37,365 bases of DNA from an uncultured Clostridia bacterium (GCA_944386145.1 CALWZZ010000002.1:1-37365), one strand, 5' to 3'; numbered from the stretch's first letter, positions 8,057 to 33,398 are shown. The notes: a model not told the origin generated them from the sequence alone. A program made the numbers and translations.

Positions 8057-8533
8057 ATGGAAGAAAAGGAAGTTATATTAACACAAGAGGGGTATAATAA
8101 TTTAGAGAAGGAATTAAATTTTTTGAAAACAGAAAAAAGAGCAGATATCGCAGATAGAATAAAAGTTGCATTAGGCTTTGGAGACCTATCAGAAAATTCA
8201 GAATATGATGAAGCAAAAAATGCACAAGCAGAAAATGAAGTAAAAATTGCAGAATTAGAAAATAAATTAAGACATGCAAAAATCATAGATGAAAAAGATA
8301 TTGATACAGAAACTGTTCAAATTGGAAATAAAGTAAAAGTATTAGATGTTGAATTTGACGAAAAAATCGAATACACGATTGTAGGTTCAACAGAAGTAAA
8401 CTTAGCAGAAAACAAAATATCAAATGAATCACCTCTAGGAGAAGCATTACTAGGTGCTAAGAAAAATCAAACAGTCGAAGTAAATGCACCAGCAGGTGTC
8501 ATGAAATATAAAATATTATCAATCAAAAAATAG
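8057..8533 (+). CDS. greA: Transcription elongation factor GreA
   Basis: 158 aa. N-terminal coiled coil with acidic-tip motif GDLSENSEYDEAK. C-terminal globular domain ending SPLGEALLG. RBS AAGGAGGA. Confidence 0.95.
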   Translation: MEEKEVILTQEGYNNLEKELNFLKTEKRADIADRIKVALGFGDLSENSEYDEAKNAQAENEVKIAELENKLRHAKIIDEKDIDTETVQIGNKVKVLDVEFDEKIEYTIVGSTEVNLAENKISNESPLGEALLGAKKNQTVEVNAPAGVMKYKILSIKK

Positions 8534-8673
8534 ACAATTGGGGCCAGGTGATGATTTTAGGGACGGAGCAAAAAATCATCATTATACTAAATTATTAAAT
8601 TTAATAATCAATTTTTAAATATAATGATGATTTTTTGCTCCGTCCCTAAAATCATCACCTGGCTCGGATTGTC
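8533..8673. repeat. 141-bp palindromic element filling the greA/deoD convergent gap (43-bp perfect arms)
   Basis: 8544-8586 is the exact reverse complement of 8620-8662. Outer GACAAT/ATTGTC also pairs. Contains the sub-hairpin GATGATTTT-aGGGACGGAGcaa-AAAATCATC. Confidence 0.9.
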
Positions 8674-9393
8674 TCAAACAGATTCTAAAGCAAGTTTAAT
8701 CATTCTGTCTAGTCCATTTTCTCTTTCTTCAGAAGTAGCGGCTTCGGTTTTAAATCTTGAATCCACAACAGTCATTAAGCAAGTGGCTTTTTTATTTAAC
8801 AACTTTGCATTATAGCATAAAGCAAAAGCCTCCATTTCAGCACTTAAAGCATGAAAATCTTTAGGCACTCTTGCCATAAAACTATCAAAATCTTCTTGAG
8901 TCATATAAGGGTCAAAACAATCACTACAAATGGTGTTTCCTTCTATAACATGAATGTTGTTTTTACTTGCAACATCTTTTATTCTTGTATTTAGTTCTGG
9001 ATTAGCTTCTACAATATGACAATCTTCATTATGAAATGTTAAAGCAAAGTTACTTTCACTAAAAATAGATTTTGAAAGCACAATATCAAATAGATTTAAT
9101 TCAGGAACATAGGCTCCACAAGAACCAATTCGAATAATATTTTCAACTTCATAAAACTTAAATAATTCATAAGAATAAATTCCCATACTAGGCATTCCCA
9201 TTCCAGAAGCCATAACAGTTACGTCTTTTCCCTTATATGTTCCTGTATAGGCATAAATTCCTCTTACTTGATTAACTAACTTGGCATTTTCTAAGAAATT
9301 TTCGGCGATATGTTTTGCACGAAGTGGGTCACCAGGCATGATAACCGTTTTTGCAATATCTCCTAAATTTGCTTCATTATGTGGTGTAGACAT
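8674..9393 (-). CDS. deoD: Purine nucleoside phosphorylase, DeoD type
   Basis: 239 aa, PNP/UDP family: MPGDPLRAKHIAE, GMGMPSMGIYSYEL, SAEMEA. RBS AGGAGG. Confidence 0.9.
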   Translation of the reverse strand: MSTPHNEANLGDIAKTVIMPGDPLRAKHIAENFLENAKLVNQVRGIYAYTGTYKGKDVTVMASGMGMPSMGIYSYELFKFYEVENIIRIGSCGAYVPELNLFDIVLSKSIFSESNFALTFHNEDCHIVEANPELNTRIKDVASKNNIHVIEGNTICSDCFDPYMTQEDFDSFMARVPKDFHALSAEMEAFALCYNAKLLNKKATCLMTVVDSRFKTEAATSEERENGLDRMIKLALESV

Positions 9394-9566
9394 TTTTATT
9401 ACCTCCTATTGAATTTGAATATATTAGATATGTATAAAATAGTATAAACAAAATTTGATAAATGTATTCGGTTTATACGAATTGAGAAATACAAATCTAA
9501 AATGAGTATAACAATAAAATTATAAAAAAGCAATGACATTATTAAAGTTACAATTATTAGAAATCG

Positions 9567-9595
9567 TTGACTTTTAAAGATAAACATAATATAAT
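9567..9595 (+). promoter_or_regulatory. Candidate argS promoter (TTGACT-17-TATAAT)
   Basis: Near-consensus hexamers with a 17-nt spacer, about 60 nt upstream of the argS start. Confidence 0.6.
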
Positions 9596-9654
9596 CTTGT
9601 AAGAAAAAAGAACTTTAGAAACGATCATAAAAGTTCAAAGAAGGGAAGAGAAAT

Positions 9655-11361
9655 ATGATAGATTTTAAAAAGACAATTGCAAAATCCATAGCAGAAGCTA
9701 TAAAAATTGATGAAAAAGAATTAGAAACCTATATAGAAATACCAAAAGACACAAATAATGGAGATTATGCATTTCCATGTTTTAGACTAGCAAAAGAATT
9801 AAAAAAAGCACCGCCAATGATTGCCAATGACATTAAAAACAATATCAAAATAGATGAAAAATTTATAGAAAAAGTAGAAGTAGCAGGAGGATATCTAAAC
9901 TTTTATATCCAACAAAGTGTAATGGTAAAAGATGTGTTAGAAGAAATAGCAAATCAAGAAGAATATGGAAAATCAGAAATAGGAAAAGGAAAAAACATTA
10001 TTGTAGAATATTCAGCACCTAATATTGCAAAACCATTTCATATAGGACATCTAAGAACAACATTAATAGGAAACTCACTATATAGAATATATAAATATTT
10101 AGGATATCATACAATTGGAATCAATCATTTAGGAGATTATGGAACACAATTTGGCAAAATGATAGAAGCATATAAGATGTGGGGAGAAGAATATGATTTA
10201 TCAGTAGATCCAATAAATAAATTGATGGATATGTATGTTAGAATTAATGAACTTTGTAAAAAAGATGAAAACGTCCTTGAAAGATGTAGAGAAAATTTTA
10301 GACTATTAGAAGCAAAAGACCAATATTGTGTGGATTTATGGAATAAATTTAAAGATTTAAGTATGGTAGAATTTAATAAAATTTATGATATTTTAAATGT
10401 TAAATTTGATTCATACAAAGGAGAATCTTTCTATGCAGATAAAATGGATGAAGTAATAGAAAAACTAAATGAAAAAGGGGTATTAAAGGAATCAGAAGGT
10501 GCAAAAATTGTTGATTTAACAGATGTTGGAATAGATACACCATGTATTGTACAAAAAGCGAATGGTTCATCAATATATGCCACAAGAGATTTAGCAGCCA
10601 TCATGTATAGAGCAAAAACATATGATTTTGACAAATGTCTATATGTAGTTGCATATGAACAAAATCTATATTTTAAACAAATATTTGCAGTAGCAAGATA
10701 TTTAGTAGACGAAAAATATGTAAAAGGATTGGAACATGTATCATATGGAATGGTAAATCTTCCAACAGGAAAAATGTCAACAAGATTAGGAAATGTCGTA
10801 AAAATTGAGGATTTAATAAATGAAACAATAGAAAAAGCAAAAGAAATTATTATAGAAAAAAATCCAGAACTAAAAAACAAAGAAGAAGTTGCTAAAAAAG
10901 TTGGGGTAGGAGCGATTGTATACAATACACTTTCAACAACAACAATAAAAGATCAAATATTTGATTGGGACACAGCTTTGAACTTCCAAGGAGAAACAGG
11001 CCCATATATTCAATATACATATGTAAGAACGAAAAGTGTACTAGAAAAAGCAGGATATATTCCCAAAATAGGGGAAGTTAAGTTTGACAACTTGTTAGAT
11101 GAAACCTCAAAAAATTGTATAAAACTAATTTACAATTTTGAAAATACACTTGTGCAAGTAACGGAAAAAGAAGAACCATCAATTCTATCTAGATATCTAA
11201 TCGACTTGGCAAAAGCTTTTAGTAATTTCTATAATGATAACAAAATATTAGTAGAAGATAAAGATGTACAAAATGCTAGAGTTTATTTGACATACGCAGT
11301 TGGTAAGGTATTGAAAATAGGAGCAAATTTATTAGGAATCGAAATGCCAGATAAAATGTAA
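9655..11361 (+). CDS. argS: Arginine--tRNA ligase
   Basis: 568 aa. Class I HIGH motif (PFHIGHLR), KMSTR (KMSKS variant), and a C-terminal anticodon-binding DALR-type region. Confidence 0.95.
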   Translation: MIDFKKTIAKSIAEAIKIDEKELETYIEIPKDTNNGDYAFPCFRLAKELKKAPPMIANDIKNNIKIDEKFIEKVEVAGGYLNFYIQQSVMVKDVLEEIANQEEYGKSEIGKGKNIIVEYSAPNIAKPFHIGHLRTTLIGNSLYRIYKYLGYHTIGINHLGDYGTQFGKMIEAYKMWGEEYDLSVDPINKLMDMYVRINELCKKDENVLERCRENFRLLEAKDQYCVDLWNKFKDLSMVEFNKIYDILNVKFDSYKGESFYADKMDEVIEKLNEKGVLKESEGAKIVDLTDVGIDTPCIVQKANGSSIYATRDLAAIMYRAKTYDFDKCLYVVAYEQNLYFKQIFAVARYLVDEKYVKGLEHVSYGMVNLPTGKMSTRLGNVVKIEDLINETIEKAKEIIIEKNPELKNKEEVAKKVGVGAIVYNTLSTTTIKDQIFDWDTALNFQGETGPYIQYTYVRTKSVLEKAGYIPKIGEVKFDNLLDETSKNCIKLIYNFENTLVQVTEKEEPSILSRYLIDLAKAFSNFYNDNKILVEDKDVQNARVYLTYAVGKVLKIGANLLGIEMPDKM

Positions 11362-11507
11362 TTGTTAGATAAGCAAAAAATCTACATATGAGGAAAACAA
11401 GAGTAGATCTATTCTATACAATAAGATACAACAAATTGTTCATAAAAACAGGCAAAGTAAAATTAAAAATATAAAAAATTCCAAAAAATTACAAAAAAGA
11501 CTTGAAA

Positions 11508-11557
11508 AACATAGATAAACATGTTACAATACAAACATAATTTATCTATGTTTTTTA
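11508..11557 (+). terminator. Rho-independent terminator after argS (A- and T-tracts on both sides, so possibly bidirectional)
   Basis: 12-bp stem AACATAGATAAA/TTTATCTATGTT, 21-nt loop, then TTTTT. Confidence 0.75.
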
Positions 11558-11731
11558 TTCTAAGGATAGATTAGATTCATAATATATATTTTTTAATTTT
11601 TATTTTAGAAATTTGTTCAAAATTTTATAATCAAGTTTATTTTAGAATATCATCTATAATTCTAATAAAGTATATGTGAAAAATATACTTAGTTTAACTT
11701 CGACTTATTTCATTCGGAAAGGAGGGATTTC

Positions 11732-12349
11732 ATGGTAGATACAATAGAAAAATTATGGGAGAAAATGCAAGAAGAATTTGACAAAATAAATGGAAAATTT
11801 GCAGAACACGACAAACGATTCGACCAAATAGACGCAAAATTTGCAGAACATGACAAACGATTCGACCAAATAGACGCAAAATTTGCAGAACACGATAAAC
11901 GATTTGACCAAATAGACAGCAAACTTGTAGAACATGACAAAAAATTTGCAGAACATGACAAACGATTCGACCAAATAGACGCAAAATTTGCAGAACATGA
12001 TAAACGATTTGACCAAATAGACAGCAAACTTGTAGAACATGACAAAAAATTTGCAGAACACGACAAACGATTCGACCAAATAGACAAAAAATTTGCAGAA
12101 CACGATAAACGATTTGATAAACAAGACAAAAAACTTGAAGAACATGATGGAAGATTTAACAGTATAGAAAACAAATTAGATATTATGGTAAATGTAAATT
12201 TGGCACAAATCTTAAATGAACAAACAAGAACAAGGACAGAATTAACGAAAAAAATAGATGATTATATGGAAAAAAATGAATTTGAACATAAAGAAATAAA
12301 TCTAAAATTAGCAGAAGATGAAGAAAAATATAAATATTTATCTGATTAA
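11732..12349 (+). CDS. Heptad-repeat coiled-coil protein of unknown function (about 10 units of KFAEHDKRFDQIDA)
   Basis: Strong RBS GGAAAGGAGGG. The repeats differ mainly by synonymous changes (CAC/CAT, GAC/GAT, TTC/TTT), which supports translation. A non-repetitive C-terminal tail follows. Confidence 0.8.
   Translation: MVDTIEKLWEKMQEEFDKINGKFAEHDKRFDQIDAKFAEHDKRFDQIDAKFAEHDKRFDQIDSKLVEHDKKFAEHDKRFDQIDAKFAEHDKRFDQIDSKLVEHDKKFAEHDKRFDQIDKKFAEHDKRFDKQDKKLEEHDGRFNSIENKLDIMVNVNLAQILNEQTRTRTELTKKIDDYMEKNEFEHKEINLKLAEDEEKYKYLSD
11795..12172 (+). repeat. In-frame 42-bp tandem repeat array with two 21-bp half units and a higher-order 105-bp duplication
   Basis: The unit AAATTTGCAGAACAYGAYAAACGATTYGACCAAATAGACGCA and its variants were read directly from the sequence. 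Confidence 0.9.
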
Positions 12350-12375
12350 AAAGTAGAATAAAAACATAGATAAAG

Positions 12376-12434
12376 GAAAGAGAAGAACATATATCCTCCC
12401 TTAAAGAATGGTATATAGTAAACTTCTCTTTTTT
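12376..12434 (+). terminator. Probable terminator after the repeat-protein gene
   Basis: AAAGAGAAG / CTTCTCTTT stem followed by TTTTATTTT. The loop is long (37 nt). Confidence 0.5.
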
Positions 12435-12447
12435 ATTTTATAAAAAA

Positions 12448-12476
12448 CTTGTAAAAAAATAAATCAAATAGTATAA
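12448..12476 (+). promoter_or_regulatory. Candidate promoter of the LCP gene (TTGTAA-17-TATAAT)
   Basis: Hexamers at 12448-12453 and 12471-12476. This would place structured repeat copy 2 inside the 5' UTR. Confidence 0.55.
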
Positions 12477-12518
12477 TATAAAAGAATTATAAAAAATATG
12501 CGAAAACAAAATATGATT

Positions 12519-12602
12519 ATCTAATACGCTTCTTGCTAGACCTTAAATTAATATAGTAAATGTTAAAAAGTGAAGAAAAGGACTAGCGAAGCTAGATTCG
12601 TT
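12519..12602. repeat. Structured intergenic repeat, copy 2, ending 20 nt upstream of the LCP start codon
   Basis: Aligns with 7083-7167 with a few substitutions and one indel. Similarity extends upstream to about 12500. Confidence 0.8.
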
Positions 12603-12622
12603 AAAATCAAGGAGGAAAAAAC

Positions 12623-13666
12623 ATGAGTAGAAATCATGAAAAAACAGGAAGAAAAGGATTAAAAATATTTGGAATTATTGTACTAATTTTAGTAATTCTT
12701 TTAGTTTTAATAGTAGGAAGTGTATTTATTTTTATAAATAGTAAATTAAGCAAAATACAACAAGTAACGATTGATGAAACCGATTTGGGTGTGTCTTCAC
12801 AAGCAGAAGAAAATTTGTCAGGATACAGAAATATTGCCTTATTTGGAATAGACAGTAGAGATAGTAGCTTAGGAAGAGGAAACAGAAGTGACTGCATTAT
12901 CATAGCAAGCATTAATAATAAAACGAAAGAAGTAAAACTGATTTCAGTATATAGAGATACCTATGTTAATATTGAAGGACATGGCTTAGATAAAATTACA
13001 CATGCCTATTCTTATGGAGAAGCACCATTAGCTTTAAAAACATTAAATGAAAACTTTGATCTAAATATAACCGAATTTGCAACTGTAAATTTTGACGCAG
13101 TAGCAGAAGCTATTAATGCATTAGGCGGTGTAACTATAGATGTTCAACCAGAAGAAGTAGAATATATCAATGATTATATTGGAGAAACTTCAAAGGTAAC
13201 AGGGCTATCTACAGAAAAAGTAACTTCAGCAGGAACACAAACTTTAGACGGTGTACAAGCTGTAGCATATTCAAGAATTCGATATACAGAAGGTGGAGAC
13301 TACAAAAGAGCAGAAAGAATGAGAACAGTTGTAGAAGCAATGGTAGAAAAATTTAAAACAAAAAGTATTAGTGAAATGAATCAAATTATAGATAAAATTT
13401 TGCCAGAAGTGTATACAAACATAACTTCAAGCGACATCTTTTCACTATTACCAAGCATAGCAAGTTTTAAAGTTACAGATAGCATTGGATGGCCATATGA
13501 GACAAGAGGAATTACACTAGATAGATGGTATGGGGTACCAGTCACATTAGAAAGTAATGTTCAAAGATTACATCAAGAAGCTTTTGGAGAAACGGATTAT
13601 ACACCATCAGACAGAGTAAAAGAAATTAGTAATCAAATTATTGAAACAACAGGATATACACAATAG
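12623..13666 (+). CDS. LytR-CpsA-Psr (LCP) family cell-wall glycopolymer transferase
   Basis: N-terminal TM anchor, LCP core motifs (FGIDSR...RSDCIIIASI, ISVYRDTYV), and a position ahead of the polysaccharide locus. Confidence 0.9.
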   Translation: MSRNHEKTGRKGLKIFGIIVLILVILLVLIVGSVFIFINSKLSKIQQVTIDETDLGVSSQAEENLSGYRNIALFGIDSRDSSLGRGNRSDCIIIASINNKTKEVKLISVYRDTYVNIEGHGLDKITHAYSYGEAPLALKTLNENFDLNITEFATVNFDAVAEAINALGGVTIDVQPEEVEYINDYIGETSKVTGLSTEKVTSAGTQTLDGVQAVAYSRIRYTEGGDYKRAERMRTVVEAMVEKFKTKSISEMNQIIDKILPEVYTNITSSDIFSLLPSIASFKVTDSIGWPYETRGITLDRWYGVPVTLESNVQRLHQEAFGETDYTPSDRVKEISNQIIETTGYTQ

Positions 13667-13667
13667 A

Positions 13668-13795
13668 TTGGTTGGGAAATAATTACAATTTTGGCGTTGT
13701 CAAACTTCATTTGAAATTTAATCAACGTACAAAAAGTACGCCTCATAAATTTCAAATTCGTTTTCCTAGCCAAAATTTAATTCTTTTCCAACCAA
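13668..13795. repeat. 128-bp imperfect palindrome immediately after the LCP stop codon
   Basis: TTGGTTGG / CCAACCAA termini, TTTTGGC/GCCAAAA, TTTGAAATTTA/TAAATTTCAAA, and apex CGTACaaaaaGTACG. Confidence 0.75.
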
Positions 13796-13932
13796 GAGAG
13801 CTTTAGGAAAAGAATGTGAAAAAAATGAAAGATGATAAAATAAAAAACACAGACACAGATTATGATTAGAGTCAAAACTCTAATCATATTTCATGGCGAG
13901 AGAAAATATCTAAAAAGTGAGGAATTCAAGAG

Positions 13933-14433
13933 ATGAAAACAAACATATTTAGGGGAATTATGGCAATTTTACTCATTTGTACACTTTTTACAATATTTGA
14001 ATTTTCTAGTCAAAATGGAACACAATCAAAGGGAATTAGTACAAGAGTAACAGAATATATATTACAATTTAGTTCTCGATATCAAGAAGCAGATACAAAA
14101 GAAAAAACACAAATACGAAATAAAACAAATGCTATTATACGAAAATTAGCTCATTTTTCAATATACACACTATTAGGATTGTTTATGATGGGAATCATGA
14201 CGAGAACAAAATTAAGAGACAAATGGAGAATTTGCATAACAATAGGATTTGGAATATTATATGCAATTTTAGACGAATTCCATCAAAGTTTTTCACCTGG
14301 AAGAACACCGAAAGTTACAGATGTATATATTGATACTTTAGGTGTTATATTGGGGATTTTATTGGTATTGTTAGTAAGAGGAATTTATAAAAAAATACGA
14401 CAAAAAGATTACAATAATATTACAGAAAAATGA
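13933..14433 (+). CDS. VanZ family membrane protein
   Basis: Four TM segments and the VanZ signature DEFHQSFSPGRTPKVTDVYIDTLG. Confidence 0.85.
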   Translation: MKTNIFRGIMAILLICTLFTIFEFSSQNGTQSKGISTRVTEYILQFSSRYQEADTKEKTQIRNKTNAIIRKLAHFSIYTLLGLFMMGIMTRTKLRDKWRICITIGFGILYAILDEFHQSFSPGRTPKVTDVYIDTLGVILGILLVLLVRGIYKKIRQKDYNNITEK

Positions 14434-14465
14434 CAATAAAGTAGAAAAATGTTATAAAAAAGGTA

Positions 14466-14494
14466 TTTACATAATTGCTTGAGTGTAGTATAAT
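14466..14494 (+). promoter_or_regulatory. Candidate promoter of the polysaccharide operon (TTTACA-17-TATAAT)
   Basis: Hexamers at 14466-14471 and 14489-14494, about 50 nt upstream of the priming transferase gene. Confidence 0.6.
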
Positions 14495-14543
14495 GTTGTT
14501 GGCAAAAAAAGGAGAAAAATGAATTTTTAGGGGGAAATAAAAG

Positions 14544-15260
14544 ATGGATGTCAGAAATGATGTGATATTATCATATGGAGACGATAATATCGAAAATTTA
14601 GCACTGATACCTAAACATATCGAAAGAAGCAGAGCAATTTTAAGATTGGAAAAAATTGCTAAAAGATTTCTAGATATTTTAGGTGGTTTTTGCGGTCTAT
14701 TGGTATTAATACCATTGACGATTGGTATATGGATAGCTAATAAGGTATCAAAAGAAGACGGACCAGTATTTTTTACACAAGAAAGAATCGGACAAAACGG
14801 AAAAATATTTAAAATGTACAAATTTCGCTCTATGGTAGTGGGAGCAGATGAAAAGCTAAAACACTACTTAGAAGAAAATGAAGAAGCTAGAGAAGAATAC
14901 AAAAAATATAAAAAACTAAAAAACGACCCAAGAATAACAAAAATAGGAAAATTTATCAGAAAAACAAGCTTAGATGAATTTCCTCAATTTATAAACGTAC
15001 TAAAAGGAGAAATGAGTTTAGTAGGGCCACGACCATACTTACCAAGAGAAAAAGAAGAAATTAATGGATTCTTCAAATACATAACATCTTGCAAACCAGG
15101 TATTACTGGTTTATGGCAAACAAATGGAAGAAGCGATACAACATTTACAGAAAGATTAACTTTAGATATGGAATATTATTATAACCATACATTAAAGACA
15201 GATGTTAAATTGATTTATAAAACAGTAGAAAATGTAGTAAAAAAAGAAGGAGCTATATAG
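14544..15260 (+). CDS. Undecaprenyl-phosphate sugar phosphotransferase (small monotopic priming transferase, WbaP/CpsE C-terminal type)
   Basis: Bacterial sugar transferase motifs KFRSM, DPRITKIG.FIRKTSLDEFPQF.NVLKGEMSLVGPRP and PGITGLWQ. Confidence 0.9.
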   Translation: MDVRNDVILSYGDDNIENLALIPKHIERSRAILRLEKIAKRFLDILGGFCGLLVLIPLTIGIWIANKVSKEDGPVFFTQERIGQNGKIFKMYKFRSMVVGADEKLKHYLEENEEAREEYKKYKKLKNDPRITKIGKFIRKTSLDEFPQFINVLKGEMSLVGPRPYLPREKEEINGFFKYITSCKPGITGLWQTNGRSDTTFTERLTLDMEYYYNHTLKTDVKLIYKTVENVVKKEGAI

Positions 15261-15261
15261 A

Positions 15262-16119: not shown

Positions 16120-16120
16120 C

Positions 16121-17290: not shown

Positions 17291-17305
17291 GTGAGGGAAG
17301 ATATA

Positions 17306-17929
17306 ATGCAAATAAAAAAAATATTACTAAAAATATACAAAAGTACAATCGGTGTTGTAAATAATAAAAGATTAAAGAATAAAAATTTTACAATTATTTC
17401 AAATAATTGTTGGGCTGGTATTTTCTATCGAAATAATAATTTGGAATACTTATCACCTACCTTGGGATTATTTTTTATGGCAGAAGATTATATAAAATTT
17501 ATATATAATATAAAATACTATATTAATGAAGATTTACAATTTATCAATATAGAAGATTCAAAATATAAAAATTATTTAAAAAAATTAAATTATAATAGTC
17601 CAATAGGTAGAATTGATGACATTGAAATAATGTTTTTGCACTATAGTTCTGAAAAAGAAGCTAAAGAAAAGTGGGATAGAAGAAAACAAAGAATTAATTG
17701 GGATAATATTATATATAAATTTTCTGATCAGAATATGTGTACATATGAACATATAAAAAAATTTGATGAGTTTAAAGCGAAAAATAAAATATTATTTACT
17801 ACAAGAAAATACGAAGGAATTAATTCTATACAAATAAAAGAATTTAGTAAAAGTGAAAGTGTAATGGACGATATAAAAACATATAAGAAATATTTTAATT
17901 TTTATAAATATTTAAATAAACTAAATTAA
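17306..17929 (+). CDS. DUF1919-family exopolysaccharide biosynthesis protein
   Basis: Signature FTIISNNCWAGIFY. The ATG at 17306 follows GAGGGA. The GTG at 17291 in the ORF track is a less likely start. Confidence 0.7.
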   Translation: MQIKKILLKIYKSTIGVVNNKRLKNKNFTIISNNCWAGIFYRNNNLEYLSPTLGLFFMAEDYIKFIYNIKYYINEDLQFINIEDSKYKNYLKKLNYNSPIGRIDDIEIMFLHYSSEKEAKEKWDRRKQRINWDNIIYKFSDQNMCTYEHIKKFDEFKAKNKILFTTRKYEGINSIQIKEFSKSESVMDDIKTYKKYFNFYKYLNKLN

Positions 17930-17942
17930 AAGGAGAAAAAAA

Positions 17943-19082: not shown

Positions 19083-19085
19083 AAA

Positions 19086-23174: not shown

Positions 23175-23201
23175 CATTATTGAGAGGAATATGATAATTT
23201 T

Positions 23202-25696: not shown

Positions 25697-25713
25697 TAGG
25701 GGGAACATAAAAA

Positions 25714-27018
25714 ATGAAACAATATAAAATAGCGGTAGCTGGAACAGGATATGTAGGATTAGTAGCAGGTGTATGTTTTGCAGAAAAAGGACATCAAGTC
25801 ATTTGTGTTGATGTTGATGAAAGAAAAGTAGAGACTATGAAACAAGGAATTTGTCCAATATATGAAGAAGATTTAGAAGAATTAATGCAAAAAAACTATA
25901 AAGAAGGAAGATTGGATTATACAACAGATTACAAAAATGCCTATAAAGATGCAGATGCCATATTTATAGGTGTAGGAACACCAGAACAACCAGATGGTTC
26001 AGCAAATTTAAGTTACATAGCGACTGTGTCAAGACAGATTGCAGAAAGCATAGAAAAAGATTGTTTAGTGGTTGTAAAATCAACTGTACCAATTGGAACA
26101 AATGATAAGGTAGAACAATTTATTAAAGACTTTTTGGTAAATGATGTAAAAGTAGAAGTGGCAAGTAATCCAGAATTTTTAGCCCAAGGTACAGCGGTAA
26201 AAGATACATTGCAAGCAAAAAGAATTATTATCGGAACAGAAAGTAAAGAAGCTGAAAAGAAATTAATGGAAATATATGAACCATTTGAACTACCAATTGT
26301 TTCAGTAAATAGAAGAAGTGCAGAAATGATAAAATATGCGTCAAATGATTTTCTAGCCCTAAAAATTTCATATATGAATGATATTGCGAATCTTTGTGAG
26401 TTGGTAGGTGCCAATATTGAAGATGTGGCAAAAGGTATGTCATATGACCCACGTATAGGTGCAAAATTCTTAAATGCTGGTATTGGTTATGGAGGCAGTT
26501 GTTTCCCAAAAGATACAAAGGCATTAAAATATTTAGCAAAACAACATGGGTATAAATTAAAAACAGTAGAAGCAGCAGTAGATGTTAATGCAGAACAAAA
26601 AGTAAAATTATTTAAAAAAGCGTCAGAAAGAATGATTACATTTAATGGGGTAAAAATTGCCATATTAGGATTAACTTTCAAACCAGGAACAGATGATTTA
26701 AGAGAAGCACCATCAATTGATAATGTGGAATTATTGTTAAAAAATAATGCAAATAATATTTATGCATATGACCCAGTAGGAGAGGATAATTTTAAAAAGA
26801 GATATCCAACAGAAATAAATTATGTTTCAACACCAGAAGAAGCATTAGAGGGAGCGAATATATGCTTTATATTCACAGAATGGAATGAGATAAAAGCAAT
26901 TAAACCAGAAACATATAAAAAATTAATGAAAACACCATTAGTGTATGATGGAAGAAATATATATGATGTAAACGAAATGAAAAATGCAGGAATAGAATAT
27001 TATTCAATTGGAAGATAA
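25714..27018 (+). CDS. ugd: UDP-glucose 6-dehydrogenase
   Basis: GTGYVGL Rossmann motif, catalytic GGSCFPKD, 434 aa. Confidence 0.93.
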   Translation: MKQYKIAVAGTGYVGLVAGVCFAEKGHQVICVDVDERKVETMKQGICPIYEEDLEELMQKNYKEGRLDYTTDYKNAYKDADAIFIGVGTPEQPDGSANLSYIATVSRQIAESIEKDCLVVVKSTVPIGTNDKVEQFIKDFLVNDVKVEVASNPEFLAQGTAVKDTLQAKRIIIGTESKEAEKKLMEIYEPFELPIVSVNRRSAEMIKYASNDFLALKISYMNDIANLCELVGANIEDVAKGMSYDPRIGAKFLNAGIGYGGSCFPKDTKALKYLAKQHGYKLKTVEAAVDVNAEQKVKLFKKASERMITFNGVKIAILGLTFKPGTDDLREAPSIDNVELLLKNNANNIYAYDPVGEDNFKKRYPTEINYVSTPEEALEGANICFIFTEWNEIKAIKPETYKKLMKTPLVYDGRNIYDVNEMKNAGIEYYSIGR

Positions 27019-27094
27019 AAAATTATAAAATTTAATTATTTTGTCCATTTCATAAGCATAACCCTAAAACAGATTACCTTTTTTACGAAACATG

Positions 27095-27123
27095 TTGCAA
27101 AACTATCTTAAAAACTGTATACT
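27095..27123 (+). promoter_or_regulatory. Candidate internal promoter for wzz-wze (TTGCAA-17-TATACT)
   Basis: Hexamers at 27095-27100 and 27118-27123 in the 154-bp gap after ugd. Confidence 0.5.
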
Positions 27124-27172
27124 AATAAAGTATCAATGCAAAAGAAAAAAAGAAAGAATAAAAGGAGGAAAT

Positions 27173-27898
27173 ATGGAAGAAATAGACTTAAAAGAATTAT
27201 TTGAAATATTTTGGCATAAGAAAGTTCAAATTCTATTAATCATATTAATTTTTATGGTAATTGGCGTAATTTATTCGGTAGGATTTGTAACACCAATGTA
27301 TAGTTCATCAACCACATTACTTTTAGCAGGAACAGCAAGTAGTACAGAAGAGCAGTCAACAAATACAATAACAACTGCAGACTTATCAATCAACTCTCAA
27401 TTGGTTTCAACATATAGTGAATTGGTAAAAAGCAAAAATATTTTAGGACAAGTTATTTCAAATTTAGGAATGAACATAGATGAAGAGCAATTAAAACAAA
27501 ATGTACAAGTTACATCAGTGGAAGATACAGAATTAATCAGAATAACAGTTTCTAACGAAAATGCAGAATATGCTGCTAGAATTGCTAATGAAATTGCAAA
27601 TGTATTTAAAGAAAAAATTGCAAAGGAAATATATAATATCAATAATGTACATATTGTAGATGAAGCAACTGTAGAAACAGAACCTTCAAATGTTAATCAT
27701 ATAAGAGATATTGCTATCTTTGCATTTATTGGTGCAGTTATTGCTGTTATGTATGTATTAATTGCTAATATGCTAGATACAACAGTAAAAACACAAGAAG
27801 ATATTGAAAAAAGTATAAAAATACCAGTCTTAGCATCTATTCCAATGTATGATATGGATATGGAAAAACTTAAGAAAAGAAAAGGAGGTAGAAGATAA
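27173..27898 (+). CDS. Wzz/CpsC-type chain-length regulator (BY-kinase transmembrane modulator)
   Basis: The ATG at 27173 follows AAAGGAGGAAAT. Two TM segments flank an extracellular domain. The stop overlaps the kinase start. Confidence 0.85.
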   Translation: MEEIDLKELFEIFWHKKVQILLIILIFMVIGVIYSVGFVTPMYSSSTTLLLAGTASSTEEQSTNTITTADLSINSQLVSTYSELVKSKNILGQVISNLGMNIDEEQLKQNVQVTSVEDTELIRITVSNENAEYAARIANEIANVFKEKIAKEIYNINNVHIVDEATVETEPSNVNHIRDIAIFAFIGAVIAVMYVLIANMLDTTVKTQEDIEKSIKIPVLASIPMYDMDMEKLKKRKGGRR

Positions 27899-28920
27899 TG
27901 AAAAAAGAATTAATTGCGCATAGAGATCCGAAGTCTCCTGTTTCTGAAGTTTTTAGAACATTAAGAACCAATATTCAATTTATGAATACCAATAATAAAT
28001 TAAAAACATTATTAGTAACATCTACATTACCAGGTGAAGGAAAAAGCTGGGTAACATCCAATTTAGCTGTTACTTTTGCACAAGCAGGAAAAAAAGTAGT
28101 TTTAGTTGATGCAGATATGAGGAAAGGAAGACAATATACCATTTTTGAGGTTTCTCCAAGACCAGGACTTTCAAATTATCTATCTGGGTTTGATAGTAAC
28201 ACAGGAGAAGAAATTTCAGAAGATTTAGCGAATTATATACAAGATACGCAAATTCCAAATCTATACATTATACCAGCTGGAAATATACCACCAAACCCAT
28301 CAGAATTATTAATTTCAACAAAAATGGTTAGTTTATTAGATAGATTAAAAGAATTATGTGATTTAGTCATTATTGATGGAACACCTTGTGAATTGGTAAC
28401 AGATTCAATTATACTTTCTAGAATTGTTGATTCTACAGTAATTGTAACTGCACATAAACAAACAAAGAAAGATGATTTACAAAAAATTGTTACCAATATT
28501 CAAAATGTAGGTGGAAAAATTGCAGGTATTGTGTTAAATAAAATACCAGTATCTGCTAAGAAATATGAACAATCATATTATTATGGCTCAACAACAATGA
28601 AAAATCCAAACATGAGACCTAAAACAAATAGAGTACCAGCGAATAATCGACTTAATATGTCTAGACAGAATAAAGTAGAAGATATGAAAAGAAGAGTAAG
28701 ACCAGAAAATCCACAAGCTTCAAGAAATAATCGAGAAATGCAAAATGCTAATCATAAAATAAATAGAAATACGACAAATCATGAACAGCCTAAATCATTA
28801 GACAATAAAATAAAGATAGATACCTCTGGAGATGTATCTTTGGAAAAAACAACAGATATTTTAAATCAAATTAATGCTTATCTAGATGAAGAAAAGAAAA
28901 ATCTAAATAATAAATCTTAA
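27898..28920 (+). CDS. CpsD/CapB-type tyrosine autokinase (BY-kinase) with a long C-terminal extension
   Basis: Walker A GEGKSW, Walker A' VLVDADMRK, Walker B LVIIDGTP, Tyr cluster YEQSYYYG, followed by about 110 N/R/K-rich residues. Confidence 0.9.
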   Translation: MKKELIAHRDPKSPVSEVFRTLRTNIQFMNTNNKLKTLLVTSTLPGEGKSWVTSNLAVTFAQAGKKVVLVDADMRKGRQYTIFEVSPRPGLSNYLSGFDSNTGEEISEDLANYIQDTQIPNLYIIPAGNIPPNPSELLISTKMVSLLDRLKELCDLVIIDGTPCELVTDSIILSRIVDSTVIVTAHKQTKKDDLQKIVTNIQNVGGKIAGIVLNKIPVSAKKYEQSYYYGSTTMKNPNMRPKTNRVPANNRLNMSRQNKVEDMKRRVRPENPQASRNNREMQNANHKINRNTTNHEQPKSLDNKIKIDTSGDVSLEKTTDILNQINAYLDEEKKNLNNKS

Positions 28921-28923
28921 TAC

Positions 28924-28945
28924 AAGAGACTTTAACAAGTCTCTT
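28924..28945 (+). terminator. Hairpin after the BY-kinase gene (9-bp stem, TAAC loop), weak terminator
   Basis: AAGAGACTT taac AAGTCTCTT followed by CTTCTTC. Confidence 0.45.
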
Positions 28946-28998
28946 CTTCATGGCATATACAAAAATCGTCAAAATTGGACAAAATTTGCAAATACATA

Positions 28999-29027
28999 TT
29001 GAAAAAATATTAAGATAACGGTATACT
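28999..29027 (+). promoter_or_regulatory. Candidate promoter for the phosphatase gene (TTGAAA-17-TATACT)
   Basis: Hexamers at 28999-29004 and 29022-29027. Confidence 0.5.
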
Positions 29028-29071
29028 ATTATAGACACTGCAAAAAACGAAGAAAAAGGAGCAAAAGAAAA

Positions 29072-29854
29072 ATGATAGACTTTCATTCACATATATTACC
29101 AAATATTGATGATGGTTCAAGAAGTATAGAAGAAACATTTAATCTAATTAAAGAAGCAGAAAAAGCAGGATTTGAGGCAGTTATATCTACCTCACATTAT
29201 ATGGAAAATTATTATGAAACAGATGTACCAGAAAGAGAAGTATGGGTCAAAGCAATTTTAGAAAATTTAAAAACAAAAAATATTAATACCACTTTATATT
29301 TAGGAAATGAGATTTATTTTACAAATAATATTATTGAATTGTTAGAAAAGAGAAAGGCATCAACCATTAATGATACAAGTTATGTCTTGTTTGAATTACC
29401 TTTAAATGCGGAACCTATGAACTTATATGATGTGGTATATGATATGTTGCAATATAAATTAGTACCAGTTTTAGCACATCCAGAAAGATATAGTTTTGTA
29501 CAAAAGGAACCAGACTTGGTGTATGATTTAATAGAAAAAGGGGTATTAATGCAAGCAAATTATGGCAGTATCATTGGACAATATGGTGAAAAGGCACAGA
29601 TGATTGTTAGAAGATTTTTTGAGAATAATATGATACATTTTTTGGGCTCAGATGTCCATAGACAAAATACAATTTACCCAAAAATTCCTCAAATATTGGA
29701 TGAGATAGCAGATATTATCGGAGAAGAAAAGTTAGAGGAATTAACAACGACAAATCCAAAATTAGTTTTAAGTAACAAAAAGATTGAAATCGACGAACCA
29801 TTTGATTTTAAATTATCCTTAAAAGAAAAAATTATTATGAATTTTAAGAAATAA
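29072..29854 (+). CDS. CpsB/YwqE-type PHP-family protein-tyrosine phosphatase
   Basis: N-terminus MIDFHSHILPNIDDG, plus AHPERY and GSDVH metal-binding motifs. Confidence 0.9.
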   Translation: MIDFHSHILPNIDDGSRSIEETFNLIKEAEKAGFEAVISTSHYMENYYETDVPEREVWVKAILENLKTKNINTTLYLGNEIYFTNNIIELLEKRKASTINDTSYVLFELPLNAEPMNLYDVVYDMLQYKLVPVLAHPERYSFVQKEPDLVYDLIEKGVLMQANYGSIIGQYGEKAQMIVRRFFENNMIHFLGSDVHRQNTIYPKIPQILDEIADIIGEEKLEELTTTNPKLVLSNKKIEIDEPFDFKLSLKEKIIMNFKK

Positions 29855-29996
29855 TAGCATTGTTGAAGAATTTGAATAATATAAAAAGAAATAGAATTTC
29901 ATCAAATAAGTTACCAAAGATTTCATGATAAATAAAAAGGGACAATAGGATTTGAAAATAAAATTAAAATTGATTTTAAGGAAAGGAAGTTGAACA

Positions 29997-31361
29997 ATGA
30001 GAAAATATTTTGGAACAGATGGTATTAGAAGGATTGCCAATACAGAATTAACCCCAGAATTGGTGTATAAAGTTGCAAAAGCAGGTGCATATGTGTTATC
30101 AAAACATACAGACCATACACCAACGATTTTAATAGGAAGAGATACACGTATTTCTGGAACATTAATTGAGAGTGCTATGACAGCTGGATTTTTAAGTTAT
30201 GGAGCAAATGTCAAATTATTAGGCGTTATTCCAACACCAGCAGTAGCATATTTAACCAGAAAATTGAAAGCAGATGCAAGTGTGGTAATTTCGGCTTCAC
30301 ATAATACATTTGAATTTAATGGTGTAAAATATTTTAGCAATAAGGGAACCAAAATTCCAGACGCACTAGAAGAAGAAATTGAGGAAGTAATGGATTCTGG
30401 AAAATTAGAAGAATTGACAGCCAAAAATGAAAAAATTGGTGTTGCAGAATATTGTTTTGATTTAATGAATGAATACATCTATTTTTTTAGAAAGCATTTT
30501 GATGATACAATCGAACCCCACTTACGTGATGATTTTGTTGTTGGAATAGATACAGCAAATGGTGCAACATCAGTCGTTGCAGAAAAAGTTTTTAAAGATT
30601 TAGGAATCAATTATAAAATTATCAATAATACACCAGATGGAATCAATATTAATGATAATTGTGGTTCTACCCATTTAGGCAATTTAAAGAAATTTGTTGT
30701 TGATAACAAATTAAGTTTAGGAATTGCTTATGATGGAGATGGCGATAGATGTTTAGCCGTTGATGAAAATGGGGAAGAAATTGATGGAGATAAATTATTA
30801 GCCATTATTTCTTCAAGTTTAAGAAAAAAAGGAAAACTAAATAAAGATACTATTGTAGCTACAGTTATGAGTAATTTGGGATTAAATAAATATGCTGAAA
30901 ACAATGGGCTACAATTGAAACAAACAAAAGTAGGAGACAGATATGTTTTAGAAGAAATGCTAAAAAATGGCTATAACCTAGGCGGAGAACAATCAGGACA
31001 CGTCATTTTATTGGATTATAACCCAACAGGAGATGGTATCTTAACATCGCTAATGTTAATTCAAACAATCTTAGAAGAAAATAAAAAAGCGTCAGAATTA
31101 GCAAGCATTATCAAATTATATCCACAAGTCTTAATTAATGCAAAAGTAAATGCTGACAAAAAATATGATTATGAAAAAGACGAAGATATTAAGAAAGCGA
31201 TCGAAGATGTTGAAAAAGAATTTGCAGGAAATGGAAGAGTTTTAATTAGACCATCAGGAACAGAACCATTAGTAAGAGTTATGATTGAAGGCGAAGATCA
31301 AGCATACATAACGAAAAGAGCACAAGAAATTGTGAATCTAATTGAAAAAAAATTGAAATAA
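29997..31361 (+). CDS. glmM: Phosphoglucosamine mutase
   Basis: YFGTDGIRR, active-site SASHN, metal loop DGDGDR, GEQSGH, and RPSGTEPLVRVM. Confidence 0.93.
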   Translation: MRKYFGTDGIRRIANTELTPELVYKVAKAGAYVLSKHTDHTPTILIGRDTRISGTLIESAMTAGFLSYGANVKLLGVIPTPAVAYLTRKLKADASVVISASHNTFEFNGVKYFSNKGTKIPDALEEEIEEVMDSGKLEELTAKNEKIGVAEYCFDLMNEYIYFFRKHFDDTIEPHLRDDFVVGIDTANGATSVVAEKVFKDLGINYKIINNTPDGININDNCGSTHLGNLKKFVVDNKLSLGIAYDGDGDRCLAVDENGEEIDGDKLLAIISSSLRKKGKLNKDTIVATVMSNLGLNKYAENNGLQLKQTKVGDRYVLEEMLKNGYNLGGEQSGHVILLDYNPTGDGILTSLMLIQTILEENKKASELASIIKLYPQVLINAKVNADKKYDYEKDEDIKKAIEDVEKEFAGNGRVLIRPSGTEPLVRVMIEGEDQAYITKRAQEIVNLIEKKLK

Positions 31362-31478
31362 ATTCGATTTGTTAATTAATATTGTAATCAATTTGTAACA
31401 TAAATGTAAATAAAAAAGCATTGATATATCAAAGGTAAAATGATAACATAAATGTATAATCTAAGGGGGTTGTGTTAG

Positions 31479-31817
31479 ATGTTCATTTTTGATATATCAA
31501 ATATTTTAAATTTAATTTTAATGCTTATAGCAACAATATTATTAATCTTTTTAGCACAAGAGCTAAAGAAAAGTTATATAACTGGAATTGCATTGTTTGC
31601 ATATCTAATTTTATTGATTGTACATGCAGGACAGATGATAACATTACCAGCAGAATTTCGTGATATGTTACCAGTGCTTGGAAGATGTATAGCAATTGAT
31701 TTTGTATTTATATTTATTACATTCTTTGCATATTTATGGGTTGATGATATTGAAGCTAAGAAAATGCAAAAGAAAAGCCTTGATAATAGTTTAGACTGGT
31801 TATGGAAAAATGTATAA
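31479..31817 (+). CDS. Small three-TM membrane protein, unknown function
   Basis: RBS AAGGGGG upstream and three hydrophobic helices. No recognisable family. Confidence 0.55.
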   Translation: MFIFDISNILNLILMLIATILLIFLAQELKKSYITGIALFAYLILLIVHAGQMITLPAEFRDMLPVLGRCIAIDFVFIFITFFAYLWVDDIEAKKMQKKSLDNSLDWLWKNV

Positions 31818-32123
31818 TGTCTAATTGTCCAATTGGGGACGTTTCTTTCCGAGACATTTTTATGTTAACAATAATATTGGAAAAATAATGTATATAATAT
31901 TTTATTCATTAAATGGCTAACATTACAGAATATACAAATTCTAATATTACCAAGCATGAAATTGCTGGCACACCGCAGATTTCCTACTTGATAATATAAG
32001 AATTTGTAATATTCCTCCATTTGCACATTTAATCTCATAAAATATTATATACATTATTTTTGTTAATAAATTTTTATAAAATTGATAAAATGTCTCAGAA
32101 AGAAACGTCCCCAATTAGACATT
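31816..32123. repeat. 308-bp MITE-like long palindromic element with 37-45-nt terminal inverted repeats
   Basis: Left TIR 31816-31860 and right TIR 32087-32123 (AATGTCTAATT[GTCCAATT]GGGGACGTTTCTTTCYGAGACATTTT). Internal matching blocks include a 24-nt exact inverted match (AAAATAATGTATATAATATTTTAT). Confidence 0.85.
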
Positions 32124-33096
32124 CTAGTATTTGGATAGCATTACTTGCTGCGCCTTTTCTTAAGTTATCTGCGACAACCCACAAATTTAGTCCATACTTA
32201 ACACTAAAATCTTTTCTAATTCGCCCAACAAAAACTTCATTATATCCATCTGCTTTTGTTGCAATTGGATAATAATTTTTTTCAATATCATCTACGACAA
32301 TAACACCAGGGAAATTTTGTAACAATTGTTTTACATCATAAAGATCAAAATCTTTTTCAAATTCAACATTAATGGATTCACTATGGCAATTCAAAACAGG
32401 GACACGCACAGTGGTAGCGGTAATTGGCAAATGTGGTCTATTTAAAATCTTTCTAGTTTCATTTATCATTTTATGTTCTTCTTTTGTATAACCATCATCC
32501 ATAAAGACATCAATATGTGGCAAGCAGTTATTAAAAATCGGATAAGGAAATTTCTTGGGAGCAAAGCCATTCATTCCGTTTTCTAAATCTTCAATGCCTT
32601 CTCTTCCAGCACCAGAAACCGCCTGATAAGTAGAATACACAATTCTTTTAATTTGGTAAGCATCATCTAAAGGCTTTAAAGGAACAACGGCTTGAATCGT
32701 AGAGCAATTAGGATTAGCAATAATTCCTTTATTTTTAAAAGCTTCTTGCATATTTACTTCTGGAACGACTAGAGGAACATCAGGATCCATTCTGTAAACA
32801 CTACTGTTATCAATGCAAATACAGTCATGTTGGACAGCAATAGGTATGTACTTTTTAGAAACGCTACCTCCTGCACAGAAAATGGCATAATCAAAATGTT
32901 TGTTAAACGAATTTTCATCTAACTCTTGTAGAATATAATTCATTCCAAAAAATTCAATCTTTTTACCAGCAGATCTTTTAGAGGAAAATAACGTATATTC
33001 AATATTTGGGAGCGATTTTTCCTCTAATACTTTTAAGGCAGTTCTTCCTACAACACCGCTGGCTCCAACAATTGCTACTCTATATCTTGTTTTCAT
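32095..33096 (-). CDS. asd: Aspartate-semialdehyde dehydrogenase
   Basis: VAIVGASGVVG and active site IANPNCSTIQ. Start chosen at MKTRYRV after GGAAAGGATGG (the ORF track extends to 33117). The last 8 codons lie inside the repeat TIR. Confidence 0.9.
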   Translation of the reverse strand: MKTRYRVAIVGASGVVGRTALKVLEEKSLPNIEYTLFSSKRSAGKKIEFFGMNYILQELDENSFNKHFDYAIFCAGGSVSKKYIPIAVQHDCICIDNSSVYRMDPDVPLVVPEVNMQEAFKNKGIIANPNCSTIQAVVPLKPLDDAYQIKRIVYSTYQAVSGAGREGIEDLENGMNGFAPKKFPYPIFNNCLPHIDVFMDDGYTKEEHKMINETRKILNRPHLPITATTVRVPVLNCHSESINVEFEKDFDLYDVKQLLQNFPGVIVVDDIEKNYYPIATKADGYNEVFVGRIRKDFSVKYGLNLWVVADNLRKGAASNAIQILECLIGDVSF

Positions 33097-33175
33097 ATAG
33101 CTAACCATCCTTTCCATAGATAAAAAATTATTCTATTTTAAAGTATATGCTTGTTAAAAGAAAAATTGCATAATA

Positions 33176-33398
33176 GAGACAGTTTGGGACAGGTTAGGTC
33201 CAATTGGGGACGTTTCCTGATGTCAATGGGGACGGAGATTTTGACAACTTTAATACTTATAATACTTACAATACTAATACTTATAATATTTGTAATTTTA
33301 GTTAACAAAATTTAAAATTGTAAAAGTTGTCAAAATCTCCGTCCCCATTGACATCAGGAAACGTCCCCAATTGGACCTAACCTGTCCCAAACTGTCTC
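33176..33398. repeat. 223-bp palindromic element with perfect 76-bp arms and a 71-nt AT-rich spacer
   Basis: 33176-33251 is the exact reverse complement of 33323-33398. The spacer carries roughly 9-nt periodic AATACTTAY units. Confidence 0.95.

Follow-up and report, generated by a model that had tools for sequence, protein, structure and literature searches.

Genes resembling those of REP-associated tyrosine transposases (RAYTs; REP, repetitive extragenic palindrome) have been described between long flanking terminal inverted repeats (TIRs) as TIRtrons or TIRYTs; many of the TIRs share the motif GGGGWSAS and some form dispersed families (Di Nocera et al. 2013, PMC3733652). That study names no Firmicutes or Clostridia. 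Subclass 2.1 of TnpA-Y1, to which 20 of 26 TIRYTs were assigned (Quentin et al. 2018, PMC6006769), has the class 2 signature Y---NP and a C-terminal extension resembling a helix-turn-helix (HTH), and no REP-like hairpins were found beside its genes in that survey. Group 1 RAYTs are present in Clostridia, and the 16-mers that flank them are modestly frequent (Bertels et al. 2017, PMC5581495). Here we describe three long palindromes, P1, P2 and P3, in a 37,365-nt stretch of DNA from an uncultured Clostridia bacterium (GCA_944386145.1 CALWZZ010000002.1:1-37365; hereafter, the window). We consider it probable that they are non-autonomous mobile repeats similar to REPs and REPINs (REP doublets forming hairpins) of uncultured gut Clostridia with a GC content of about 28%, and that they are served by a RAYT-class Y1 enzyme. 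We observed a large, sharp-ended repeat family, the presence or absence of its members without duplication, and units flanking a syntenic, putatively single-copy Y1 gene in seven related genomes. In its RAYT-like gene, its TIRs and its dispersed copies, and in part in its GGGGAC(A/G) motif, this combination of repeat and gene fits the TIRYT/RAYT class.

The window has about 28% GC and a Firmicute-like gene set that includes FtsEX, three PcsB-like M23 peptidases, CtpB, GreA, ArgRS, LytR, a capsule-type locus, GlmM, and Asd. The three palindromes wholly fill the spacers in which they lie. P1 has arms of 65 nt that are 89% complementary (8532-8596/8610-8674), P2 has arms of 35 nt that are 94% complementary and separated by 226 nt (31826-31860/32087-32121), and P3 has arms of 87 nt that are 95% complementary (33176-33262/33312-33398). 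A reading made from the DNA letters alone (the sequence-only reading) had proposed that two cores recur across these palindromes, and both were found in place and far above chance. The core-1 word GGGACGGAG occurs four times, at 8560-8568 and 33229-33237 on the plus strand and at 8638-8646 and 33337-33345 on the minus strand; 0.54 occurrences are expected by chance and 0 of 100 shuffles reached four. The core-2 word CAATTGGGGACGTTTC, with a chance expectation of 0.11, is also present four times, at 31830-31845 (+), 32102-32117 (-, with one mismatch), 33201-33216 (+) and 33358-33373 (-). The same reading described the cores as displayed in hairpins; the four sites of core 2 stood, and core 2, more than a loop motif, turned out to be the head of a terminal unit of 33-36 nt that starts sharply at TGTCC.

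The palindromes are built from blocks that are widespread in related bacteria. When one genome per species was scanned for the exact 17-mer CCAATTGGGGACGTTTC from core 2, at least 115 loci were found, about 110 of them in metagenome-assembled genomes (MAGs) of uncultured gut Clostridia or Eubacteriales (hosts human, chicken, and mouse; GC content 25-31%); the window's own species is not among the loci listed. The family-level signal noted from the window alone was borne out by hundreds of further instances in other genomes. The main block is a 33-nt terminal unit, TGTCC-AATTGGGGACGTTTCTGTTTG-GGACA, with core 2 as its head. The other blocks are hairpins that carry GGGGACGGA(G/C), that is core 1, on many different stems, and in these short hairpin blocks (T/A)GGGAC(G/A) is shown at the 5' side of the loop. 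A block may stand alone, be one of an inverted pair, or be nested with others in a long palindrome, as in P1 to P3. Among 152 distinct copies, the start of the unit is sharp, passing from background to T94 G94 T99 CC and then on through AATTGGGGACGTTTC(T/C)NTTTGGGACATTTTT. Inverted unit pairs span 64-501 bp and have unrelated interiors, and a core-1-type hairpin lies just inside each unit in four loci (L029, L049, L067, L100) and in P3 of the window.

Comparison of orthologous spacers showed that these repeats are mobile. Filled and empty versions of the same spacer, with clean junctions, were seen in four pairs of loci (L102/L044, L081/L062, L121/L102, L006/L010), and a 90-nt pair of core-1 hairpins in L102 is missing at the orthologous site of L044. 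None of 37 inverted pairs had a target-site duplication. The spacer between greA and the PNP-family gene, where P1 lies, is hypervariable among ten syntenic metagenome contigs that encode an identical GreA. In L001, L002, L005, and L008 it holds ordinary terminators; in L010 it holds one hairpin, AAAAGGGAAA-TTGGGAACGGACCCA-TTTTTCCTTTT; and in L003 and L006 it holds a hairpin of the L010 type together with long palindromes of GTCCA-TTTGGGACGTTTCTGTT-TGGAC units. A covariance model of the unit found exactly four significant copies in the window and three copies in 205 kb of the ten syntenic relatives, and the density in unbiased sequence of the window's genus is about one unit per 35 kb. Some other MAGs are far denser, with up to one element per intergenic region across several kb. 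Contigs of the window's species (L128, L131, L133) stop inside P2 or P3, and we attribute such assembly breaks to the repeats.

We looked for a gene that could serve these repeats. A phmmer search with E. coli RayT against all open reading frames (ORFs) of the collected loci gave no match, and a regular expression for HUH...Y on the same ORFs returned nothing real. The gene was found by way of ORFs lying between inverted units 0.7-5 kb apart. L086:6878-7666 encodes a 262-aa protein that scores 64 bits against Pfam Y1_Tnp (cutoff 23). A homologue in L109 is 53% identical to it, and five more (P0072, P0030, P0078, P0106, P0038) are 54-69% identical; the Y1 proteins are 255-278 aa long. In 7 of 7 homologues, all from relatives of the window's species, inverted units or TIRs lie on both sides of the gene. 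The ends in L086 are 55-nt TIRs, TGTCCCATTGGGGACGTTTCTGTTTGGGACATTTTGTCCCATCTGGGACACATCTC, and a species-specific TIR variant is also dispersed in L150. All seven share one slot, with a miaB-like gene and a small hypothetical gene before Y1 and with radA and disA after it; for the five further homologues the conserved order also takes in mreB at its start and a gene for a peptidyl-prolyl isomerase at its end. The left TIR follows directly on the stop codon of the upstream gene, and the right TIR reaches or overlaps the ribosome-binding site or ATG of radA. The wider family has 3610 members at E ≤ 1e-10, and many of these are the sole gene on a contig of about 1.0 kb, a pattern that breaks of the assembly in the flanking repeats would produce.

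The features of the protein are those of a RAYT-class enzyme. The best NCBIfam model was NF047646, 'REP-associated tyrosine transposase', with E-values of 1e-19 to 4e-21 and scores of 68-75 bits that lie below its cutoff of 80; the IS200 model gave E of about 1e-4 and 17-24 bits against a cutoff of 55. An HxH motif (H62/H64) and the sequence Y-I-H-Q-N-P (Y121-x3-N125-P126, that is Y---NP) are invariant and align with E. coli RayT, to which overall identity is 20%. An AlphaFold (AF2) model with a pLDDT of 76 matched the structures of IS608, ISDra2, TnpA-REP, and IS200 transposases with E of about 4e-5 and probability 1.0, and a family profile gave a weak match to TnpA-REP (4ER8) with E of 0.07. 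A further conserved region of the proteins, a C-terminal extension of about 100 aa, is helical in the model and has sub-threshold matches to HTH_26 and HTH_5; no match to Bac_DnaA_C, HTH_23, or HTH_28 was found in this extension. The TIRYTs probably also correspond to Group 1 of the RAYTs (PMC5581495). These results support the suggestion of the sequence-only reading that the hairpins are recognized by a Y1 HUH protein as in REP/RAYT systems. That reading had also raised the prospect that the copies are fragments of the terminus of a single known insertion sequence (IS); they do not belong to a catalogued IS, and are instead the TIRs of a RAYT-like TIRtron (PMC3733652).

Two further observations concern the surroundings of the Y1 gene. 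All Y1 genes inspected are preceded by a conserved hairpin that lies between their start and the left TIR, AAAAAGTATAGCACA-N10-15-TGTGCTATACTTTTTT (L086 about 7720-7770, L138 about 3900-3950, and also in L141, L144, L150, and L152), which may be a regulatory or insulating structure. The neighboring radA is frameshifted into two ORFs in L086 (6210-6384), L141 (5274-5445), and L144 (4194-4305) and is intact in L109 and L138; the split could be a fault of the assembly or genuine decay of the gene.

The same loop word is displayed on many stems. In the window, the sequence-only reading had described core 1 as one loop on two unrelated stems, GATGATTTT/AAAATCATC in P1 and GTCAA/TTGAC in P3, and this pattern generalizes. 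Across all low-GC loci, hairpin loops of 9-21 nt carry the conserved GGGAC(G/A) on their 5' side, and the stems below them are of more than 35 distinct and unrelated kinds. These include TGTCC/GGACA, TGTCCAA/TTGGACA, TGTCTCA/TGAGACA, GGGACA/TGTCCC, GATGATTTT, GGGATTTT, AGGGA, TGTCAA, TCTGCCA, and TTGAGAC, as well as GTGGAACG, AAACGGAACGAT, GTTGCCAAA, TTGGAAAG, AAACTTTTT, and CGATGTTTTTT. Several unrelated stems are found within a single MAG, CANSPP01 (L015, L018, L034, L056, L064, L113, L118, L121). We then compared enclosing stems in intergenic DNA only, with copies clustered to independent contexts and a perfect stem of at least 7 bp required. Such a stem enclosed the motif in 34 of 129 contexts (26%) and was present in 5.5% of 4000 motif-free intergenic controls (p = 1.2e-14). 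The unit stem also covaries, a check for which the sequence-only reading had called. For the closing pair of this stem, 59 units have C-G, 3 have T-A, and 2 have G-C, with pairing above all 2000 shuffles, in a sample that is biased to the CC form because the scan pattern fixed CC. Pairs were counted from the anchored ends, since MAFFT misaligned the 3' arms of units of 31 and 32 nt.

Based on these results, we infer that the loop is recognized by the Y1 protein. The enzyme would bind the units as folded single-stranded DNA hairpins and would read the loop word GGGAC and the shape of the hairpin rather than the sequence of the stem. IS608 TnpA recognizes the loop and the shape of a hairpin. Cutting and rejoining would take place at the TGTC/GACA feet of the hairpins, and units or inverted doublets would be excised and reinserted without duplication, probably during replication, as has been proposed for REPs and REPINs. 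The C-terminal region of the enzyme may, in addition, contact the repeated GGGAC/GTCC words as double-stranded DNA. Spacers would be the only places in which copies persist; many copies there are now flush with a stop codon or a ribosome-binding site, and the host may have put some of them to use as structures at RNA 3' ends or in connection with translation.

In a stricter form of this proposal, which we hold to be doubtful, the enzyme would read only a loop-displayed (T/A)GGGAC(G/A)N3-4CA and the geometry of the hairpin, and the host would have co-opted the copies that are flush with stop codons or ribosome-binding sites as translation- or mRNA-linked control. If reading were by the loop only, any hairpin that gained the word would become a substrate, which would explain more than 35 unrelated stems with one loop. 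With co-option as well, the family would be a REP system of Firmicutes that is addressed by the loop, is indifferent to the stem, and has a role in the cell.

Several observations weigh against mobility served by a Y1 enzyme. A tblastn search of the 37-kb window with the Y1 family found no cognate gene and no remnant of one, in agreement with the sequence-only reading, which had seen none. No core-1-type hairpin was seen directly flanking a Y1 gene, although such hairpins are present inside unit-bounded elements. In 16 units (about 20%) the closing pair is a C·A mismatch, and the unit has an alternative fold that pairs the motif's GGAC with GTCC at the 5' end. The G-C variant TGTCG/CGACA, which L150 has both in the TIRs that flank its Y1 gene and in a copy elsewhere, supports the outer stem over this alternative. 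The foot of the hairpin is TGTC(C/T/G), unlike REPs, which have a 5' GT[AG]G in this place. The remaining points concern duplex protein sites and position relative to genes, and each underlies a different explanation of the repeats.

Position relative to genes is what an RNA-level explanation would draw on, in which the hairpins are chiefly functional RNA (terminators, 3'-end stabilizers, translation-linked structures or sites for an RNA-binding protein) kept by selection, with an incidental or secondary link to Y1. In 32 of 147 copies the unit starts at the base right after a genuine stop codon (TAA 21, TAG 6, TGA 5), with 6-7 copies at each of the neighboring offsets, and in about 18 copies the other end of the unit abuts a ribosome-binding site. 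Of the 16 core-1 hairpins that stand alone, 14 have the sense orientation of the upstream gene, and for solo units the count is 38 sense versus 21. Motif copies no more than 60 nt from the 3' end of a gene share the orientation of that gene in 180 of 205 cases. Tandem and convergent spacers are preferred over divergent ones, and the loops contain ACGGA(C/G), which is reminiscent of GGA-loop motifs. The sense bias and the abutment on stop codons point to a constraint at the level of the transcript or of translation, beyond transposition alone. The abutment recalls an effect of E. coli REPs on translation; Liang, Rudd and Deutscher reportedly found in 2015 that REPs within 15 nt of stop codons affect it. 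It could also be the outcome of a deletion bias in compact genomes around constrained elements. At 113 of 117 loci the G-rich strand is also the coding one, which makes orientation relative to replication inseparable from orientation relative to transcription. Nevertheless, we regard a chiefly RNA-level explanation as unlikely. The majority of copies are inverted pairs that present both orientations, presence or absence between species is sharp-ended, and the same units are the TIRs of a transposase gene. No Rfam family matched in the window at its gathering score, and five rich loci searched at E up to 10, including for TwoAYGGAY, gave only generic noise from miRNA hairpins. Two specific versions of an RNA-level role were set aside: intrinsic terminators, since a T-rich 3' tail follows just 13 of 61 non-unit hairpins, and CsrA-type GGA loops, since the ANGGA context is missing from core-2 loops and paired copies offer both strands. 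The hairpins may have an added role at the RNA level beside transposition.

It is also improbable, in our view, that the GGGAC/GTCC words are sites for a protein on double-stranded DNA, for example the HTH-like C-terminal region of the Y1 enzyme or some factor of the host, with hairpin formation irrelevant and the apparent covariation a result of concerted change in one repeated site. The unit can be written as a(TGTCC)-a'(GGGGAC)-spacer-a'(GGGACA), the long TIRs alternate TGTCCC and GGGACA (L086, L141, L150), the arms change jointly between species, and the C-terminal extension of the Y1 proteins is helical in the model with weak HTH matches, all of which would speak for such sites. Sites of this kind would also make the arms covary. 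Duplex sites do not account for the more than 35 core-1-type stems that are unrelated to GGGAC, several of them per genome, with the constant part between complementary arms, nor for enclosing stems that are five-fold enriched relative to intergenic controls. The catalytic domain is, moreover, that of enzymes that act on single-stranded hairpins.

The perfect TIRs with a TGT start and an ACA end, the sizes of 64-501 bp, and the variable interiors would also suit ordinary miniature inverted-repeat transposable elements (MITEs) derived from a DDE-type IS with TG...CA ends and mobilized by it. We consider this very improbable given the lack of target-site duplication in the 37 pairs. No DDE transposase was found in the ORFs of about 1.1 Mb of loci, in which the recurrent ORFs are housekeeping genes, and blastn with the unit found no similar sequence in plasmid or phage collections. 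The Y1 transposase is the only gene found bounded by unit ends. Chance or a low-complexity artifact, to which an AT-rich background that favors short inverted repeats might lend itself, is negligible in the face of the shuffle tests, the hundreds of copies elsewhere, and covariance-model E-values of 1e-13.

Other candidates for a larger element or a partner gene were considered and rejected. Arrays of GGGGTATCTGTCAC as the ends of a larger element have PheT, IleRS, MetK, MiaB, and SpoIIIA genes as neighbors and no transposase. Recurrent ORF clusters near the elements were all housekeeping, and 4-kb and 2-kb 'full-length' elements in L042 and L121 contain ordinary genes.

The anatomy of the three palindromes in the window bears the marks of this family. 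P1 is a compound palindrome (8532-8676) that fills the convergent spacer between greA (+) and the PNP-family gene (-) and has a predicted RNA fold of -93 kcal/mol over 145 nt. It begins at the greA stop codon, and its last bases (8674-8676) give the minus-strand PNP-family gene its stop codon. A degenerate unit head is found at 8533-8549 on the plus strand (GACAATTGGGGCC / GACAATTGGGGCCAGGT, by comparison with the unit logo); it is too decayed for the covariance model, and its inverse at 8657-8673 is more decayed. Next to it is a core-1 hairpin at 8550-8580 (+), with the stem GATGATTTT/AAAATCATC, the loop AGGGACGGAGCA, and a folding energy of -10 kcal/mol, and the opposite arm carries the inverse copy at 8626-8656 (-). 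This type of stem with an identical loop recurs in L018, L034, L015, L062, and L110.

P2 is a REPIN- or MITE-like element (31818-32121) comprised of two inverted terminal units and a 226-nt interior. It starts right after the TAA of an ORF at 31479-31817 that is 112 aa long; we considered this ORF as a counterpart of the small gene that precedes Y1 and rejected it for lack of homology. The left terminal unit, TGTCCAATTGGGGACGTTTCTTTCCGAGACATTTT (31826-31860, +), scores 50 bits with the covariance model (E 2.7e-13) and is preceded by a partial duplicated head, ATGTCTAATTG, at 31817-31827. The right terminal unit, TGTCTAATTGGGGACGTTTCTTTCTGAGACATTTT (32087-32121, -), scores 52.8 bits (E 3.7e-14), and its stem, TGTCT/AGACA, is a T-A variant of the usual TGTCC/GGACA. 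The last eight codons and the stop codon of asd (32095-33117, -) come from this unit. The interior of P2 contains a nested 89-nt segment (31921-32009) that is missing from other strains of the window's species (L136, L128); it has short inverted ends of its own and no GGGAC word, and resembles a nested small indel element.

P3 is a compound palindrome (33176-33398) in the divergent spacer upstream of asd, with a predicted fold of -155 kcal/mol. Its 87-nt arms each hold three parts: outer module, unit head, and core-1 hairpin. The outer module, GAGACAGTTTGGGACAGG, contains GGGACAG and lies at 33176-33193 (+), with its inverse copy at 33381-33398. The unit head, GGTCCAATTGGGGACGTTTCCTG (core 2), is at 33197-33219 (+) and in inverse at 33355-33377, and both copies score 27 bits with the covariance model (E 4e-6). 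The core-1 hairpin at 33221-33246 (+) has the stem TGTCAA/TTGACA and the loop TGGGGACGGAGATT, and its inverse copy is at 33328-33353 (-). L026 has a hairpin pair identical to these.

Several other repeats and variable regions were observed. A second repeat class (L023, L078, L085, L095, L096; for example, L095 2620-2980) consists of CCAATTGGGGACGTTTCC and, after it, two or three copies of a direct repeat about 18 nt long, (A/T)ATGGGGTAT(C/A)(T/A)(G/C)TCAC, and has housekeeping neighbors and no transposase nearby. In L083, a 715-nt insertion with a Fic-domain gene (3393-4109) lies directly after a unit and is missing at the orthologous site of L073. In the window, tandem repeats of 21/42 nt (11710-12217) lie within an ORF of 205 aa (11732-12349), whose counterpart in the ten syntenic contigs ranges from 129 to 233 aa. 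Two copies of a direct repeat of 61 nt, which are 89% identical, are found at 7083-7143 and 12519-12579, each copy just upstream of a gene start (7163 and 12623), and may be a shared promoter or leader. Between 17000 and 24000, in the middle of the polysaccharide locus, GC falls to 20-25% and gene content differs among all syntenic relatives, which is typical of a swapped capsule or glycan cassette.

RAYT Group 1 and subclass 2.1 (TIRYT) form the largest and least understood branch of domesticated Y1 transposases. The clade described here offers a natural mutational scan of such a system, with hairpin TIRs across many genomes and one word on dozens of stem variants, making substrate recognition directly testable. 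If the association of gene and repeat holds, REPIN-like populations would be extended to Firmicutes. There are also practical consequences: the repeats fragment short-read assemblies of common gut Clostridia, and they give stop codons and C-terminal residues to neighboring genes such as asd and the PNP-family gene, which matters for annotation.

Among known systems, these repeats can be compared first with those that share their architecture only in part. Rolling-circle and CRESS-DNA Rep origins resemble them in the way they work, and in that respect only, in that an HUH nuclease reads a conserved loop on replicon-specific stems; those origins are single, lie on replicons, and are served by the Rep class of enzyme, whereas the repeats described here are dispersed over chromosomes. 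The BOX, RUP, SPRITE, Bcr1, and EFAR elements of Firmicutes, which have either no known enzyme or a DDE partner, are likewise modular, structured intergenic elements of tens to hundreds of bp with possible effects on neighboring transcripts. Our repeats have no sequence relation to them, lack the TA or any other duplication such as that of RUP, and have a Y1 partner that can be named. With IS200/IS605 and the palindrome-associated (PATE) derivatives they share the catalytic fold, the lack of target duplication and, as inferred here, single-stranded hairpin substrates. However, IS200/IS605 elements have distinct left and right ends and no TIRs, the signature Y----Q, a TnpA of about 130-150 aa and multiple copies, whereas here the ends are identical and inverted, the signature is Y---NP, and the gene occupies one conserved slot.

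The resemblance to the REPs, bacterial interspersed mosaic elements (BIMEs), and REPINs of Proteobacteria with their RAYTs (E. coli TnpA-REP, PDB 4ER8; Pseudomonas REPINs, PMC3116915) is closer. Both are extragenic imperfect palindromes, single or in inverted doublets that fold into long structures, without target duplication and with a preference for the 3' side of genes, and in both a Y1 gene of class 2 (Y---NP) is flanked by its own repeats. The gene of REPIN-RAYT systems is single-copy and vertically inherited; here it is putatively single-copy and sits in one syntenic slot in seven homologues. Unlike REPs, our units carry their conserved sequence in a large loop and not in a GC-rich stem. 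The closest systems are the TIRtrons/TIRYTs, which likewise have a RAYT-like Y1 gene between long TIRs rather than GTAG REPs, a TIR sequence that is also a dispersed family with single, dimeric, and clustered copies, and a protein that is longer than IS200 TnpA and has a C-terminal extension. Exact forms of GGGGWSAS, GGGGACAC and GGGGACAG, are found in many copies, in second modules and some hairpins; the commonest form of the motif is GGGGACG(T/G), and the dominant GGGGACGT or GGGGACGG fits GGGGWSAS at 6 of 8 positions. Relative to subclass 2.1 (PMC6006769), the C-terminal HTH is only weakly detectable here and each TIR unit is itself a hairpin. Unlike the published TIRtrons, this family belongs to a Firmicute clade, extends over many species, has its gene in a fixed slot beside radA, and displays its motif on many unrelated stems. 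To the known class the family adds the Firmicute clade, TIR units in the form of hairpins, and the display of one loop on many stems.

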